Origin: a virus
Virus record (IMG/VR): IMGVR_UViG_3300031998_000320
Length of the DNA: 39,241 bases
Strand: one strand, 5' to 3'
The notes beneath the pieces are model-generated. The model was not told where the DNA came from, did not search any database, and worked only from the letters and a program-made list of their open reading frames with translations. Position numbers and translations under genes: made by a program. This document shows positions 4,972 through 34,227 of the stretch, piece by piece (position 1 is the first letter of the stretch; each line of letters opens with the position of its first letter).

Positions 4972-5199
4972 CTATTTACCTCTCTTTTCTTCAACTAATT
5001 TTTTTAATTCTTTCTTTTCTTCTTTTAATTTTTCTATCTGTTTTTGAAATTCTACATTTTGCAATACTAATATTTGTACTGTTTCTAGTGATTTTATGTA
5101 ATCTTCATTTCTTGCTTCATATTTATTTAATGCTGTATTTCTTTGTCTTTTATACTTTATTACATCAAAGAAATCTTTTATTCTATCCCCTATTTTCAT
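4972..5199 (-). CDS. Hypothetical coiled-coil protein (75 aa)
   Basis: Track ORF, K/E-rich helical. Tightly packed against its neighbours. Confidence 0.5.
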   Translation of the reverse strand: MKIGDRIKDFFDVIKYKRQRNTALNKYEARNEDYIKSLETVQILVLQNVEFQKQIEKLKEEKKELKKLVEEKRGK

Positions 5200-7639: not shown

Positions 7640-8012
7640 TGTCAGGATATTTACTTAATAACATTTTTATTTTTAATCTGTATATTTTATCTTTTCTGGT
7701 TATTTCACTTTTAACATCTTCTACAATTGTTCTGCCACTTTTAACATCTGTGTATTGAAAGTCTGCATAATATTTAGTCTTTGGATATGTTTTGCCTTTA
7801 TATTTTATTGTATCTATAAGTAAATATGGAACTTGTCTTTGTAAGTTTTGTATTACACCTAGTCTTTCTAATTGTTTTAATCCTATATATCTGTTTTTTT
7901 CTTTAATTGAATCAAACTTGATTCCATCATATTCTACTTTTTTATTATGATATTTATTTTGTTTTGTATAATTGCCTATAAATTGTCTATATTGTGATTC
8001 ACTTATTCTCAT
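7617..8012 (-). CDS. DUF1064-type nuclease-fold protein
   Basis: KYHNKKVEYDGIKFDSIKEKNRYIGLKQLERLGVIQNLQRQV...YYADFQYTD..SGRTIVEDVKS..T....YRLK matches the DUF1064 signature (K..N.K...DG..FDS..E..RY..L......I..L..Q......Y.ADF.Y......VEDVK). Start taken at MRISESQ (ATG 8010..8012); the track start is a TTG. Confidence 0.7.
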   Translation of the reverse strand: MRISESQYRQFIGNYTKQNKYHNKKVEYDGIKFDSIKEKNRYIGLKQLERLGVIQNLQRQVPYLLIDTIKYKGKTYPKTKYYADFQYTDVKSGRTIVEDVKSEITRKDKIYRLKIKMLLSKYPDIDFEEII

Positions 8013-8850: not shown

Positions 8851-9231
8851 TTATTCTCCTTTGCTTTTAAGATAATCTATAACTTCATTTAATTTATCTG
8901 CTATTATTTTTTGTGGTGTTGAAATATTATATGAGTGTTCTTTCCCATATACTTTCCATTTCCAATTATTTTTAATGTTTTTTTCTTGTCTTATATCTAA
9001 TTTTTCAGGTATTTTCTTTTCTTCTTCTAAGATTTCTACTTCATCATTTAAAATATTACATATACTAAAATCAGTTGTTAATGCTATCCAATTACTACCT
9101 ACAACACTTCTATAATAATTTTTACGGTCTGTATGATAAAAATAATTATAACCATTATATATTATTTCCTTTGGTACTTCTTCTCCTTTACTAATCATAT
9201 TAAGTAAGTCAATAACTTTTATTTTATTCAT
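8851..9231 (-). CDS. Hypothetical protein (126 aa)
   Basis: Track ORF. The N-terminus MNKIKVIDLLNMISKGEE resembles the N-terminus of the upstream HNH gene. The protein ends in KGE (SD of the next gene). Confidence 0.5.
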   Translation of the reverse strand: MNKIKVIDLLNMISKGEEVPKEIIYNGYNYFYHTDRKNYYRSVVGSNWIALTTDFSICNILNDEVEILEEEKKIPEKLDIRQEKNIKNNWKWKVYGKEHSYNISTPQKIIADKLNEVIDYLKSKGE

Positions 9232-26701: not shown

Positions 26702-26730
26702 ATTATAACATAAAAATAAAAAGGTGTAAA
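26702..26730 (-). promoter_or_regulatory. Extended -10 promoter for the glycosyltransferase operon
   Basis: Minus strand: TTTACA (26725..26730), 17 bp, TGTTATAAT (26702..26710). The -35 lies inside the preceding terminator hairpin. Confidence 0.6.
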
Positions 26731-26738
26731 ATACACCC
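26710..26738 (-). terminator. Intrinsic terminator after the IDRID-type nuclease gene
   Basis: 7-bp stem GGGUGUA/UACACCU (26722..26738, one G-U pair), 3-nt loop, then UUUUAUUUUU. Confidence 0.55.
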
Positions 26739-26739
26739 T

Positions 26740-27300
26740 TTAATTTAATTTCAATGCTTTTTCTATGGTTTTGCCATCTTTTATTTTTTTCCATGCTGTT
26801 TGATAATTTATATTATATATTTTACACCATTCACTTAATAATTTAGTTTCATTGTTTATTGTAAAAAGTAATTTACCACCACTTTTTATAACTGGTTTAT
26901 TTAATGCTTCATTAATAGACAATCCTGCTTTTAATCTATCACTTAATGTTACTATGTTTATATTATATTCTCTAGACCATTGTGATAAAGTTTTTGTTTC
27001 ACCATTATAAGTTATTTTTCTATTATTTCTTCTATTGTTATCTTGTACTTCTTTTGTTACCCATCTACAATTAGATGGTTCATAATTACCATTTACATCT
27101 ATTCTATCTAATGTTAAACCTTTTTTGTAACCATTATTTATAGCCCAATCATAAAAACTATCAGGATTGTTTATCCATTCTTCGCATATTTTTATACCTC
27201 TCCCACCATATATTTCATATCCATGAGTAGCAGGATAATTACATCTACAATACATACTATGTCTTATAGTAATTAATCTTTTTTTATCTTCTTTGTTCAT
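26740..27300 (-). CDS. Free-standing HNH-like homing-endonuclease-type protein (paralogue of 6864..7496)
   Basis: YGGRGIKICEEW...LTLDRIDVNGNYEPSNCRWVTKEVQ, then two repeats of I(T/N)YNGETK.LS.W...YNI. Start taken at MNKEDKK (ATG 27298..27300, GGGAGGT upstream); the track start is a GTG. Confidence 0.6.
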   Translation of the reverse strand: MNKEDKKRLITIRHSMYCRCNYPATHGYEIYGGRGIKICEEWINNPDSFYDWAINNGYKKGLTLDRIDVNGNYEPSNCRWVTKEVQDNNRRNNRKITYNGETKTLSQWSREYNINIVTLSDRLKAGLSINEALNKPVIKSGGKLLFTINNETKLLSEWCKIYNINYQTAWKKIKDGKTIEKALKLN

Positions 27301-27314
27301 AATAAAAATACCTC

Positions 27315-27369
27315 CCACAACAAAGTATTAGAGGAGCAGTTGTGGTACTCCTCTATAAACATTATATCA
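27315..27369 (-). promoter_or_regulatory. Promoter plus structured leader (copy Y) of the nuclease gene
   Basis: TGaTATAAT at 27361..27369. Two interleaved helices: AGAGGAG/CUCCUCU (27348..27354 with 27330..27336) and CCACAAC/GUUGUGG (27339..27345 with 27315..27321). The second abuts the SD. Confidence 0.6.
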
Positions 27370-27373
27370 TATT

Positions 27374-27733
27374 TTATGATATTTTCCAAATATATTCAAT
27401 TTTTTTATCAGTGCAATCCCACGTGTCTATAACGTAGCCATTGATACACGCTGTTATATGATTATTAGTAGTTATTAAATATTTTCCAACAGGATGATTT
27501 TCAGCAAACTCTCCTATGTATATCTCATTGTAAGGTATTCTTTTAAACTTTTTATCTAAAAAATTCCTTACAAAAATAGCACTATCCATCATATAACCTT
27601 GTTCCATTGCACTTTTACATAATTCTTTATATGCTTCTTTCCATGTTATATCCATTACTATTGAATATGCCCTAGGAAAGCAGTCATCAATAAAATTATT
27701 ATGACTATTAGCATTATAAAAATAATATCTCAT
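27374..27733 (-). CDS. Possible papain/transglutaminase-like thiol enzyme (119 aa)
   Basis: Ordered candidate triad: Cys in IDDCFPRAYS, His in NNHITACINGY, Asp in IDTWD. Inferred from motif order only. Confidence 0.35.
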   Translation of the reverse strand: MRYYFYNANSHNNFIDDCFPRAYSIVMDITWKEAYKELCKSAMEQGYMMDSAIFVRNFLDKKFKRIPYNEIYIGEFAENHPVGKYLITTNNHITACINGYVIDTWDCTDKKIEYIWKIS

Positions 27734-31860: not shown

Positions 31861-31885
31861 AAAAAAAGAACGATATTATCGTTCT
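31861..31885 (-). terminator. Strong intrinsic terminator ending the ORF-free unit
   Basis: Perfect palindrome AGAACGATA-T-TATCGTTCT (31867..31885), followed on the minus strand by a run of U (31861..31866). Confidence 0.8.
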
Positions 31886-32362
31886 TGCGTTTTAAGTGCT
31901 ATCTTATAAGCACTGTACTAATGATATAAAGGTTATAACTTAGCCATTTGTTGTGGAGTACAAGAATTACATAAGGAAGTTGGCTCTAACTATTAACACT
32001 TGTCATCCCTTTAACCACATCATCTTTTATATATCATCAGTACACTACCTATAAAAGATAAACCAAGCAACCCCTCCGCTATTGCTCGGACTTGATATAA
32101 CACAAATATATCTCCAAGTGCCTATTATAAGCACCATTGAATAGATATAGACAGTGGTGCAAGGATACCCTTGATAATCGTTTCCTTTAGTCTTAAATCG
32201 CTTCCCACACTAGAAGTTGTGTACTTAACTTCTTTACTTAAGACATTATTCACTAATCTGCAGTTCGTGAAATTATCAATGTACCGATTATATCTACTCA
32301 ATGCTACCTATAAAGGTAACACCAAAAATTTATAGCTTCCAATCCTCATAGAAGTAATTGGA
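31861..32362 (-). ncRNA. Candidate large structured non-coding RNA (about 0.5 kb), family unassigned
   Basis: No ORF of 60 aa or more in any frame, and composition is visibly less A+T-rich than the flanks. It has its own promoter and terminator and several clean hand-paired helices (see findings). Confidence 0.55.
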
Positions 32363-32369
32363 CAATTTA

Positions 32370-32398
32370 ATTATATCACTTTAATTTACTTTTGGCAA
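32370..32398 (-). promoter_or_regulatory. Extended -10 promoter of the ORF-free unit
   Basis: Minus strand: TTGCCA (32393..32398), 17 bp, TGaTATAAT (32370..32378). The 16-mer TGATATAATTAAATTG (32363..32378) is identical to 7604..7619. Confidence 0.55.
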
Positions 32399-32920
32399 CT
32401 TATCATCTGCATATTTCCATTTGTAGCCATAAGCATTAGATATTCTTCCTTTTGCACAAGCAATTATATTACTTCTATTAAAATTAAATTCTTTTTCAAT
32501 TTCAGTTATTGAATTATATTTCTTAATAAAATTATTGTTTTTATCGTATTGTTTAATTGATTTTATTATACCTAATCTTGCTTTTTGTGTTCTAGTTCCA
32601 TAGTTTATATTATATGTATGCTCACACCATTCTAAATTATCAACGCAGTTATTACTAGGATTTTCATCTTTATGGTTAATTTCATTATAATTATTAGGGT
32701 TAGGTAAAAATGTTATTGCCACTAATCTGTGTACTCTAAAATGATGTCTTCTACCATCTTTTGTAAATAAACACACCCTTTTATAATTATGATTACTTTC
32801 TTGTTTTAATATTTCTTCTTTATTATGATGTCTATATTTCATACTTTTTACTCTACCCAAATTAGACACCATGTATCTTCCTTCAAAATCAGGAATATCT
32901 TTCCACACTTCTTCTATCAT
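32381..32920 (-). CDS. HNH homing endonuclease (NUMOD4 / HNH_3 / C-terminal DNA-binding repeat)
   Basis: WKDIPDFEGRYMVSNLGRVKS, then HRLVAITFLPNPNNYNEINHKDENPSNNCVDNLEW, then a C-terminal NIIACAKGRISNAYGYKWKY. Start taken at MIEEVWKD (ATG 32918..32920, GGGAGGTG upstream). Confidence 0.85.
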   Translation of the reverse strand: MIEEVWKDIPDFEGRYMVSNLGRVKSMKYRHHNKEEILKQESNHNYKRVCLFTKDGRRHHFRVHRLVAITFLPNPNNYNEINHKDENPSNNCVDNLEWCEHTYNINYGTRTQKARLGIIKSIKQYDKNNNFIKKYNSITEIEKEFNFNRSNIIACAKGRISNAYGYKWKYADDKLPKVN

Positions 32921-32931
32921 ATATAACACCT

Positions 32932-32988
32932 CCCGAATAAGTGTTAGAGGAAGCAATTCGGGTACTTCCTCTATATATAATCATAACA
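32932..32988 (-). promoter_or_regulatory. Promoter plus structured leader (copy X) of the HNH gene
   Basis: TGTTATGAT at 32980..32988. Two interleaved helices: AGAGGAAG/CUUCCUCU (32965..32972 with 32946..32953) and CCCGAAU/AUUCGGG (32956..32962 with 32932..32938). The second abuts the SD. Confidence 0.6.
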
Positions 32989-32991
32989 TAT

Positions 32992-34227
32992 TTACTTCAT
33001 TTTAGCAATATTTACACGACGATAGCCACTAACTTTAGCACGTTCGATTTTACTTTTTAAACCACTTGCTTTCAATATATCCCTATATTTGCTTGTTAAT
33101 TGAGTTATTCTACTTTGCATTTCTCCAACTAATTCAGTGTTATTGCTAGAATAAGCAAGTATTTGAGTGTCTTTAGATTTTCTTAATTCTAATTCTACTT
33201 TACGAAGTAATTGTTCACCATCATATAAGCTATAATGTTTGCCTTCAAATTCAAAACCTTTATTATTGCTATCAATTATTTCTTTTAATTGCTTATCGCT
33301 ATATTCAGGTTCACTAACACCTAAAACAATGCTAAATATGTAGTGGTAACAGTTAAGCTCACTAATTGGACGATAACCATTTTTGTTATCGTGATCTAAC
33401 GTATAAGTATTGCCTTTATAATCTTTTGCTTCAAGTCCACTATTTAATCTATCGTATTCTGCTAGTGAAAATTGTCTACCTTGTACTTTTTCATGGTCTA
33501 TTGCTGGATTACTATGTACACTTATTTCATACCCATCACTATCAAATTCAGCACCTAATATTTTTTGGTTTTCATTATGTAATTCTCTTAATCTACCTTT
33601 TAAGTGCATTCTTATAGCACTATCTAATCTTATAGAACGTCCACTTTCATATTGAATAGTCTTTAAACCACTACCACCAATGTCTTTCATAATTCTACTC
33701 ATAGCACTATCGAATGTTTCTTTACCTTGCCCAACATTTAATAATGCCTCATCTAATACACGATTATAAGTTTCTCTTAACCCCATAAATTGAACTCGTC
33801 CATTTATATCACGAATAGTATAGCCTAATACATTTGCACGAGTAAAATTATACATTTCGTTCTTAACTATATTTGCAAGTGCCTCTGTTTGACGTTTTAA
33901 TGCCTCATTTTGCTCGTATTCTACAAAAGGTATATTTCTATACTGGTAGAACTTTTCATAGAATAATTGGTCTTTTTTAGCGTAATTAGAGAATATATCA
34001 TCAATATCTTTTATATTCAAATCTGTATATTTAGCAATTTCTCTTATAATATCTTCATAATTGCCACCATATTTCAAGATATTCACAAGTTGTTGTGCTT
34101 GACTTGGTGTTAATTCTCTTATTTTTTTAATAGAAGAACCCATTTTCATTAGAAAATAGGTGTTTGCTTCTTCTATTCTATTCAAAAGTCTTTCAACTAA
34201 CAACTCAATTTGTTCTTCACTTATCAT
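32992..34227 (-). CDS. Minor head protein (head morphogenesis, minor-capsid-2 / MuF-like position)
   Basis: 411 aa, encoded just downstream of the portal gene (separated only by the 162-aa HExxH ORF). The N-terminus EEQIELLVERLLNRIEEANTYFLMKMG is typical of this family. Confidence 0.65.
   Translation of the reverse strand: MISEEQIELLVERLLNRIEEANTYFLMKMGSSIKKIRELTPSQAQQLVNILKYGGNYEDIIREIAKYTDLNIKDIDDIFSNYAKKDQLFYEKFYQYRNIPFVEYEQNEALKRQTEALANIVKNEMYNFTRANVLGYTIRDINGRVQFMGLRETYNRVLDEALLNVGQGKETFDSAMSRIMKDIGGSGLKTIQYESGRSIRLDSAIRMHLKGRLRELHNENQKILGAEFDSDGYEISVHSNPAIDHEKVQGRQFSLAEYDRLNSGLEAKDYKGNTYTLDHDNKNGYRPISELNCYHYIFSIVLGVSEPEYSDKQLKEIIDSNNKGFEFEGKHYSLYDGEQLLRKVELELRKSKDTQILAYSSNNTELVGEMQSRITQLTSKYRDILKASGLKSKIERAKVSGYRRVNIAKMK

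Follow-up and report, generated by a model that had tools for sequence, protein, structure and literature searches.

Two adjacent hairpins with complementary loops in a portable leader of phage homing-endonuclease genes

Introduction

Homing-endonuclease genes need to be expressed without harm to the phage that carries them, and the solutions found beyond the T4-like phages are almost unexplored. The question is raised here by two such genes, X and Y, in the phage of IMG/VR virus record IMGVR_UViG_3300031998_000320, the whole stretch of which (39,241 nt, hereafter the window) was analysed. Each gene is preceded by a similar leader, in which an earlier note on this DNA had recognized two interleaved, covarying helices reaching the ribosome-binding site (RBS). 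What does this leader fold into, where else is it used, and what could it do for a nuclease gene?

The window phage is siphovirus-like, with a terminase, an SPP1-type portal and a minor capsid protein, and every gene lies on the minus strand. A megablast/blastn comparison of the region with 50,697 phage records returned no close relative, and the best portal match stood at 39%. The two nucleases come from different protein families, as the earlier note had held: both are labelled HNH-type nucleases in PHROGs, yet they belong to separate families there, and their sole BLASTP similarity is a 21-residue C-terminal stretch (E = 0.004). A Pfam search of protein Y, whose core reads LDRID...NCRW, found no domain.

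Results

Architecture of the leader

The leader is about 55 nt long and consists of two adjacent hairpins (HP1 and HP2) whose 7-nt loops are fully complementary, the second hairpin containing the RBS. Both leaders are present on the minus strand as they had been written in the earlier note, upstream of the open reading frames (ORFs) starting at 32920 and 27300 (Table 1), and a loose pattern of helix 1, the stem of HP1, matched both sites and no other in the window, where 0.02 matches would be expected. HP1 has a stem of 8-11 bp and a 7-nt loop that is the whole of strand b. HP2 has a stem of 7-9 bp, rich in G.U and A-U pairs and referred to as helix 3, and its loop is exactly b′, the complement of b, the linker between the two hairpins being 0-1 nt. 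That is, pairing of b with b′ (helix 2) is a pairing of one hairpin loop with the other.

The differences between leaders X and Y are compensatory (one additional A:U pair for helix 1, double changes at three positions for helix 2), and both of these helices proved real and covarying when relatives were added, all positions being paired and 12 of 15 pairs altered on both sides. The third helix had been overlooked. ViennaRNA folds of five variants paired the segment past helix 1 with the sequence directly 3′ of b′, giving HP2, so that AACACUU in leader X and AAUACUUU in leader Y, formerly taken as unpaired, in fact pair with the Shine-Dalgarno (SD) region. Likewise, the dinucleotides UA and UG that had been read as linkers are instead paired (U.G plus A-U) and covary in relatives (UG/CA, UA/UA, UG/UG, CA/UG and AG/CU). 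The suggestion of either a pseudoknot or two mutually exclusive hairpins holds as far as the helices are interleaved, but not as regards exclusion of helix 1 by helix 2, strand b being the loop of HP1; the pair of helices competing for the same strand would rather be helix 2 and helix 3.

The SD always begins in loop b′ and runs on into the 3′ arm of HP2, with 1-4 nt of GGAGG in the loop and the remainder in the stem, and the AUG follows 0-6 nt downstream of HP2. In 16 of 16 distinct sequences, the spacer and 1-5 nt of the SD are engaged in helix 3. Occlusion of the RBS by helix 2, as formerly proposed, must therefore be qualified: the RBS does lie within the structure, but helix 2 covers merely 1-2 nt of GGAGG in X and Y, where helix 3 covers the rest, and it covers 3-4 nt in two other leader types (Z and L071). 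In arm c of HP2, U is often found instead of C facing the SD guanines, so that HP2 stays weak.

Each leader also has its own extended −10 element (at 32988..32980 and 27369..27361), as had been noticed, and in fact a full promoter. The −10 sits 5-7 nt from helix 1 in all contexts and reads TGnTATAAT in almost every copy, and most copies have TTGnnn 17 nt above it, giving a host-type promoter of the form TTGnnn-17-TGnTATAAT. By the usual 7-nt rule, the predicted transcription start (+1) would be the first base of helix 1. Other genes of the window phage have short unstructured leaders directly past TGnTATAAT, e.g. near 26702 and 31542.

Covariation of the three helices

A search of related phage genomes for the leader motif, which the earlier note had suggested, yielded about 50 further copies among IMG/VR, metagenome and metagenome-assembled genome (MAG) contigs. 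They fall into five types by their loop b: CCACAAC (Y), CCCGAAU (X), CCCUUAU (Z), CCGUAAU (W) and CUCCAAU (L071). Pairs were counted on an alignment (A4) of 16 distinct sequences registered on the two loops with N padding; a plain MAFFT alignment (A2), which put gaps in helix 1 and displaced L071, was excluded from counting. All 22 pairs across the three helices are 100% paired in the 16 sequences, and 17 of them show changes on both sides. For helix 3, which occurs in four sequence versions, 5 of the 7 pairs are altered on both sides. None of 500 shuffles matched the observed pairing and covariation, and sliding the partners by 1-3 columns left only about 50% paired. Furthermore, RNAalifold run on A4 independently gave HP1 plus HP2, with a covariation term of −5.5 kcal/mol.

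Because the registration of A4 had itself used structure, 2.13 Mb of fetched DNA was also scanned without regard to sequence, for pairs of neighbouring hairpins that have 7-nt loops with 7/7 Watson-Crick complementarity and a linker of ≤3 nt between them. This returned 43 matches, all of them family members, and 0 in three shuffled copies, and a relaxed version of the scan revealed no family member with an imperfect loop-loop match. The loop-loop complementarity is thus 7/7 Watson-Crick in every copy, across five loop versions. Helix 2 never contains a G.U pair, whereas helices 1 and 3 contain many. Since G.U wobbles correspond to A.C mismatches on the opposite strand, the structure belongs to the sense RNA.

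Distribution and mobility of the module

An exact-pattern scan of IMG/VR gave 12 loci, 11 of which are Y-type and identical along the matched stretch (one of these, L008, retains the 5′ part of the leader only); at least 8 different ORF N-termini lie downstream of these Y-type leaders. Looser DNA patterns gave mostly chance matches, which were filtered by structure, one pattern being essentially uninformative. Further variants came from these looser patterns and from a leader-independent retrieval anchored on the two nuclease proteins, and a scan of a genome collection added two further copies. By megablast and blastn against 50,697 phage records, the 101-nt module is absent from isolate phages, although 1,016 phage records contain the nuclease protein family. 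Among 80 distant loci of IDRID-type nucleases from metagenomes, the leader was found in one, indicating that it is restricted to a lineage and is not a trait of the protein family. The leader belongs to a narrow lineage of uncultured rumen and gut phages. Two MAG contigs carry the Y-type module, L318 (JAEDHQ010000009.1, 44.5 kb; Bacilli MAG bin) and L320 (CACYFN010000004.1, 37.2 kb; bin of the rumen Erysipelotrichaceae MAG RUG11890), and this binning gives a hint of the host of the phage lineage and of the window.

Every intact copy lies upstream of a nuclease ORF, of phrog_3377/374, phrog_59/959 or phrog_1035. The leader is therefore portable across nuclease families, as had been proposed, being found with three families, in at least 8 genomic contexts and in five types. 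Contigs L216 and L217, in which the upstream gene is different, have BLASTN homology to locus X over 33016..32403 only, a span that takes in promoter, leader and the greater part of the ORF. L011 has in common with the window only 27371..27297 (75 nt, 98.7% identity by BLASTN), and the ORF behind the module there is an unrelated, endonuclease VII-like one (phrog_1035). A Y-type leader precedes a NUMOD4 nuclease in L014 and L106; an X-type leader in L081 lies at the same site past the minor capsid gene but with an IDRID-type nuclease; and at a site marked by phrog_3754, six different ORFs are found behind the Y leader. A promoter-leader module of 75-100 nt thus recurs in changing combinations with IDRID-type, NUMOD4-HNH and endonuclease VII-like genes. 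The conserved module probably serves also as the 5′ homology arm for ORF swaps.

Decaying copies were seen as well. Internal deletions in L008 (844..870) and L377 (minus strand, near 4977) fuse the leader, from past helix 1 or b′, to a middle or final part of the nuclease ORF, leaving the promoter plus HP1. The start codon has been lost in L215, L043/L058 and L232 (ATG changed to ATA, or the start region gone), and L385 has a weakened SD and an early stop. Decay of this kind is usual in the life cycle of homing-endonuclease genes, and here the ORF is lost before the promoter and leader are.

In the window itself, a terminator hairpin (AAAGGGTGTATTTTACACCTTTT plus a T-run) lies directly past gene Y at 26702..26741, followed by an TGTTATAAT promoter, a short leader and a glycosyltransferase gene. 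The Y cassette is thus flanked by a backbone gene on one side and, on the other, by the terminator-promoter pair belonging to the next gene.

Table 1. Features of the X and Y modules in the window, and helix 3 arms of the five leader types
Feature	Position	Strand	Sequence	Remarks
Homing-endonuclease gene X	32381..32920	-		179 aa; NUMOD4 + HNH_3 + NUMOD1 (Pfam); phrog_59, phrog_959; AUG at 32920
Leader X	32972..32925	-
X −35-like hexamer	33003..33008	-	TTGCTA	17 nt upstream of −10
X extended −10	32980..32988	-	TGTTATGAT	TGTTATAAT or TGATATAAT in relatives, equally spaced, 5-7 nt from helix 1
X helix 1, 5′ arm (HP1)	32963..32972	-	AGAGGAAGUA	predicted +1 at or beside 32972
X loop b	32956..32962	-	CCCGAAU	7-nt loop of HP1; complement of 32938..32932
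X helix 1, 3′ arm	32946..32955	-	UGCUUCCUCU
X helix 3, 5′ arm (HP2)	32939..32945	-	AACACUU	'unpaired' spacer of the earlier note
X loop b′	32932..32938	-	AUUCGGG	7-nt loop of HP2; final two G open the SD GGAGGUG
X helix 3, 3′ arm	32925..32931	-	AGGUGUU	bears most of the SD
Homing-endonuclease gene Y	26740..27300	-		186 aa; 'IDRID'-type nuclease; phrog_3377, phrog_374; AUG at 27300
Leader Y	27354..27307	-
Y −35-like hexamer	27384..27389	-	TTGGAA	promoter scan: 27389..27361, 10/12 matches, TG present
Y extended −10	27361..27369	-	TGATATAAT
Y helix 1, 5′ arm	27346..27354	-	AGAGGAGUA	predicted +1 = A at 27354, 7th nt past TATAAT
Y loop b	27339..27345	-	CCACAAC
Y helix 1, 3′ arm	27330..27338	-	UGCUCCUCU
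Y helix 3, 5′ arm	27322..27329	-	AAUACUUU
Y loop b′	27315..27321	-	GUUGUGG	final G = first G of the SD GGAGGU
Y helix 3, 3′ arm	27307..27314	-	GAGGUAUU	SD
Helix 3 arms (5′ / 3′), type Y			AAUACUUU / GAGGUAUU
Helix 3 arms (5′ / 3′), type X			AACACUU / AGGUGUU
Helix 3 arms (5′ / 3′), type Z			AUCAUUU / AGAUGAU
Helix 3 arms (5′ / 3′), type L071			AUCUUAUAU / GUGUAAGAU
Helix 3 arms (5′ / 3′), type W			AAUACUUU / AGGGUAUU

Energetics and geometry of the alternative folds

The computed energies are −12 to −13 kcal/mol for HP1 and −3.2 to −6.8 kcal/mol for HP2, and the stacking of helix 2 alone amounts to −10.7 to −12.9 kcal/mol. When a crude penalty is charged for the pseudoknot, HP1 plus HP2 (the closed form) reach −15 to −20 kcal/mol, and helices 1 and 2 together (the knotted form) −12.5 to −16 kcal/mol; given the error of such a penalty, both forms could plausibly be almost equal in energy.

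If the loops kissed in a coaxial stack, (9+7+8) × 2.8 Å, i.e. about 65 Å, would separate the base of one stem from that of the other, and the loops are without spare nucleotides. A distance of this size, set against a linker of 0-1 nt, would rule out the coexistence of all three helices in one molecule. Given this linker and these loops, helix 2 would have to either displace HP2 or form between molecules. A pseudoknot of helices 2 and 3 with helix 1 open was also rejected, as it would require a 0-nt loop across a 7-bp stem. In an H-type knot of helices 1 and 2, a strand of 7-10 nt, the same one that makes up the 5′ arm of helix 3, crosses 8-11 bp, which is adequate by rule of thumb, and a first loop of more than 0 nt would require the top pair or pairs of helix 1 to open.

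Discussion

A proposed bistable gate on ribosome access

The most likely function of the leader is probably the translational gating of toxic nucleases. More specifically, we give about an even chance to the reading that it is a bistable gate acting in cis on ribosome access, combined with protection of the 5′ end by HP1. The host-type promoter would fire at the first base of the leader, which would put the strong HP1 at the extreme 5′ end of the transcript and the weak HP2, with the SD, behind it. In the closed form, the 3′ part of the SD and the spacer would be paired. Formation of the loop-loop helix would then displace HP2 and produce an H-type pseudoknot, made up of HP1 and the helix between its loop and b′, in which the 5′ part of the SD would be paired and the remainder released. 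HP1 would at the same time shield the 5′ end of the mRNA, and the net outcome could be a low or time-limited translation of a potentially toxic nuclease despite a strong promoter. In its logic, such a gate resembles what is documented for the T4 endonuclease genes (PMC2988022) and for timP (PMC11228461), and in timP translation is settled by mutually exclusive folds.

A number of observations weigh against this reading. Opening of the region −18..+3 costs, in a nested model, 5.6 kcal/mol for X (rank 21 among 55 genes) and 2.8 kcal/mol for Y (rank 40 among 55); these costs are ordinary, so HP2 alone would be no unusually strong block. The logic of the switch also differs by type: knotting releases 5 nt of the SD in X, Y and W, but in Z and L071 the knot itself takes up 3-4 nt of GGAGG. 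No trigger is evident, that is, neither an ORF in the 55-nt leader or upstream of it nor a ligand pocket, and no conserved opposite-strand promoter was noted near leaders X or Y. The motif TGNTATAAT is without overall enrichment in the window (12 found, 8.4 expected), 11 of the 12 being on the coding strand. The pseudoknot energies are crude, and the transcription start is predicted from consensus only. Moreover, leaders are nearly invariant within a type, which may reflect recent spread rather than selection; the number of independent compensatory events is therefore nearer to that of types and sub-variants (about 15) than to that of the cells counted in the alignment. Finally, part of the family was found by patterns that fix helix-1 bases, a bias from which the protein-anchored retrieval and the sequence-blind scan are free.

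A target in trans within the window was rejected, since the loop 7-mers of X occur in the leader only, and those of Y occur at chance frequency and never in hairpin loops. No other loop-complementary hairpin was found in the window.

Possible pairing between leader molecules

The gate in cis has helix 2 displace HP2; the other way for helix 2 to form is between molecules. HP1 of one leader would kiss HP2 of another, and reciprocally, 'hand in hand', giving a closed dimer or chains in which the three helices coexist. We regard this arrangement as unlikely, although several features suit it. Covariation of all three helices is seen in every type, for which a state holding them all would be the simplest explanation, and the arrangement fits all five types alike, including Z and L071 with the SD in the loop. 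Kissing helices are sensitive to wobbles, and helix 2 is strictly 7/7 Watson-Crick while helices 1 and 3 tolerate them. HP2 is too weak to block the RBS alone, so an added lock is required if the leader represses. In the complex, the entire SD would be buried in a continuous stack of 22-25 bp, and translation would drop as the mRNA accumulates; this form of dosage control at the RNA level is equally doubtful, and the summed helix length of 22-25 bp is not tightly conserved. Co-resident leaders bear different loop pairs (X and Y in the window, Z and Y in L001), but this would be expected by chance about half the time. In phi29 pRNA, complementary loops that are unable to pair in cis pair in trans. 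On the other hand, we know of no bacterial precedent for regulatory dimerization of mRNA leaders, and a pseudoknot in cis has a large advantage in effective concentration. If this tentative alternative were nonetheless right, the leader would be a self-recognizing mRNA element, with same-type leaders pairing into dimers or chains and shutting nuclease translation as their own mRNA accumulates. The five loop types would then be orthogonal specificity classes, and the assembly, similar to that of pRNA or of the retroviral dimerization initiation site (DIS), would provide dosage control of a selfish gene.

Other explanations

It is improbable that the leader is mainly a stabilizer of the mRNA, in which a fully paired 5′ end protects against 5′-end-dependent decay in a Bacillota host and the SD is drawn in only because the leader is compact. 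5′-Terminal hairpins do stabilize mRNAs in Bacillus (ermC, aprE), and here helix 1 starts at the predicted +1 in all contexts, 5-7 nt past the −10 and with −12 to −13 kcal/mol, nearly all nucleotides from +1 to the SD are paired, and the energies for opening the RBS are ordinary. The timP pseudoknot, too, increased mRNA levels (PMC11228461). This explanation, however, leaves unexplained the perfect loop-loop complementarity, the position of the SD always astride the b′/c′ junction, and the presence of the leader on nuclease genes only, other phage genes having short leaders.

The static H-type pseudoknot of the earlier note, with helices 1 and 2 as the sole functional fold occluding the SD and helix 3 incidental, now appears hardly probable. 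Helix 3 is paired throughout the 16 sequences with most of its pairs altered on both sides, it is predicted by RNAalifold, and b′ is always exactly its 7-nt loop; moreover, the knot in X and Y leaves GAGGU or AGGUG free, i.e. it would occlude the RBS only minimally. These points stand against the full covariation of helices 1 and 2 and the loop lengths, which do suit an H-type knot (7-10 nt over 8-11 bp, with a 7-bp second stem).

That the leader binds a ligand, as a riboswitch, or a protein (a translational repressor, possibly the nuclease itself) is very improbable: the shape is conserved while the sequence varies, and small SD-sequestering pseudoknot riboswitches (preQ1, SAM-II, guanidine-III), a riboswitch of two kissing hairpins (guanidine-II; PMC7544219) and autoregulation of I-TevI, though at the DNA level (PMC2988022), are all known, but Rfam searches up to E ≤ 10 gave no match, very few conserved nucleotides are left unpaired to line a pocket, the same leader is common to three unrelated nuclease families, and the leaders within one genome differ in loops and stems. 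Equally remote is an element acting at the DNA level (a homing or recombination handle, an operator or a terminator) with RNA structure as secondary: the 75-100 nt module is indeed the unit exchanged between ORFs, and at one site the same leader precedes different nuclease families, but a role as recombination handle is compatible with an RNA function and no alternative to it, the frequent G.U pairs of helices 1 and 3 are A.C mismatches on the other strand, and compensatory change in three helices would be unexpected for a protein operator. Reading helix 1 as a terminator or attenuator was likewise rejected, as it was flagged terminator-like for Y only and not for X, the stretch past the stem always begins with AA, and the stem lies downstream of its own promoter.

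Other candidate structured elements

Directly past gene X, between an TGATATAAT element (32378..32370) and an intrinsic terminator (31886..31866), the minus strand has an ORF-free stretch of about 500 nt (31866..32363) with a folding energy of −144.9 kcal/mol (shuffles, −110.6 +/- 5.7; z = −6.0). It is made up of two paralogous units, each with 25-nt imperfect inverted arms flanking 101 or 139 nt, and the centres of the arms differ between the units with compensating changes. No Rfam match was found for this stretch, and its blastn conservation in relatives is poor; it is a candidate structured non-coding RNA or small inverted-repeat element.

Three further arrangements were seen in other contigs. 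In L089, an unrelated phage contig, an intergenic repeat (ggttctAGGAGAYTTTATCCTTAAAGYCTCCTTCCAATGAGGATTATCTATGATCCTC) occurs three times, at 390, 2420 and 3767, about 40 nt before the SD/ATG of successive genes, and the loop of its hairpin is complementary to the 5′ arm of the next hairpin. In L374, a different phage contig (minus strand, near 7851), the overall layout is that of the leader, with an 11-bp hairpin (loop CCUAUGG) immediately before one of 7 bp (loop CUGUAGG); two of the pairs between these complementary loops are G.U, no SD/ATG lies behind the hairpins, and the arrangement could be due to chance. A hairpin in L001 (minus strand, near 8975; AAGGATAG-AACTTGT-CTATCCTT) and its homologue in L009 (minus strand, near 1987; AGAGTAGG-ACTTGC-CTACTCT) could each pair through the loop with a stretch shortly downstream; both lie on the strand opposite the phage genes and about 1.5 kb from the Y leader.

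Relation to known systems and significance

No described RNA family matches the leader, as the earlier note had supposed. Rfam 15 (which includes preQ1-I/II/III, SAM-II, guanidine-II/III, pistol and HEARO) gave no match in the window at the gathering threshold, and at E ≤ 10 the two leaders gave noise only (at most 16 bits, against thresholds of 40-90). A full-text literature search for a pseudoknot at a homing-endonuclease RBS found only a review of T4 post-transcriptional control.

Hairpins that sequester the RBS are known for the T-even endonuclease genes I-TevI, I-TevII, I-TevIII, segB and Aeh1 mobE (PMC2988022). As here, a structured leader directly precedes a selfish nuclease gene and the SD is paired, presumably with the purpose of limiting or timing the nuclease. 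The T4-type element, however, is a single very stable hairpin, in contrast to the weak SD hairpin of the present leaders (−3.2 to −6.8 kcal/mol; opening ranks 21/55 and 40/55), and it is bypassed by a late promoter that starts inside the hairpin, whereas the predicted +1 lies here upstream of all arms. The additional 5′ hairpin, with a loop complementary to that of the SD hairpin, and the sharing of one module by several families also set the present leader apart, and there is no sequence similarity. The T2/T4 gene 32 pseudoknot is alike in geometry to the knot of helices 1 and 2.

Among toxic or otherwise harmful products, the mRNA of the timP toxin is gated at translation by alternative conformers and a covarying 7-bp pseudoknot (PMC11228461), and pseudoknot gating of the ColIb-P9 repZ initiator mRNA is cited in PMC10724649 (Asano and Mizobuchi 1998). 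In these systems too, an upstream hairpin loop pairs near a sequestered RBS, exclusive folds decide on translation of a harmful protein, and covariation lends support. They involve a partner (an antisense RNA or translation of a leader peptide) and far longer leaders, whereas no partner was found here, and the target of the loop is in our case exactly the loop of the SD hairpin. Guanidine-II (mini-ykkC) likewise has two tandem small hairpins before the SD, the loops of which are proposed to kiss and to control access to the RBS (PMC7544219). It differs by its conserved ACGR tetraloops, its ligand and a linker of 7-40 nt, as opposed to variable, complementary 7-nt loops and a linker of 0-1 nt.

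Loop-loop contacts of this kind are also found in assemblies such as phi29 pRNA, the retroviral DIS and ColE1 RNA I/II, in which two hairpin loops of 6-7 nt are likewise complementary throughout by Watson-Crick pairs. As in the present leader, the complementary loops of pRNA lie in one molecule and covary between phages, and in pRNA they are unable to pair in cis. These, however, are stable non-coding RNAs or genomes, and the present element is an mRNA leader. In Firmicutes, small RNAs (sRNAs) have C-rich hairpin loops that pair with G-rich SD regions, e.g. RNAIII with rot via two loop-loop contacts; a C-rich loop (CC.....) pairing with a G-rich, SD-containing loop to control initiation is common to both, but here the two partners are in the same leader and no separate sRNA is involved.

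Thus, the leader is a probable cis-regulatory, RBS-containing element of selfish nuclease genes, with an unusual but well-supported architecture, a portable, promoter-containing format and membership in no described RNA family. With about 55 nt and five natural compensatory 'alleles', it would make a sound new entry in an RNA family database, and it is a possible part for the synthetic control of toxic genes in Bacillota. It also offers an unusually clean natural case of adjacent hairpins with fully complementary loops, an arrangement that forces either a conformational switch or intermolecular pairing. For the biology of these phages, the module is tied to nuclease genes and not to one protein family, and in this it resembles a portable expression cassette for selfish genes.

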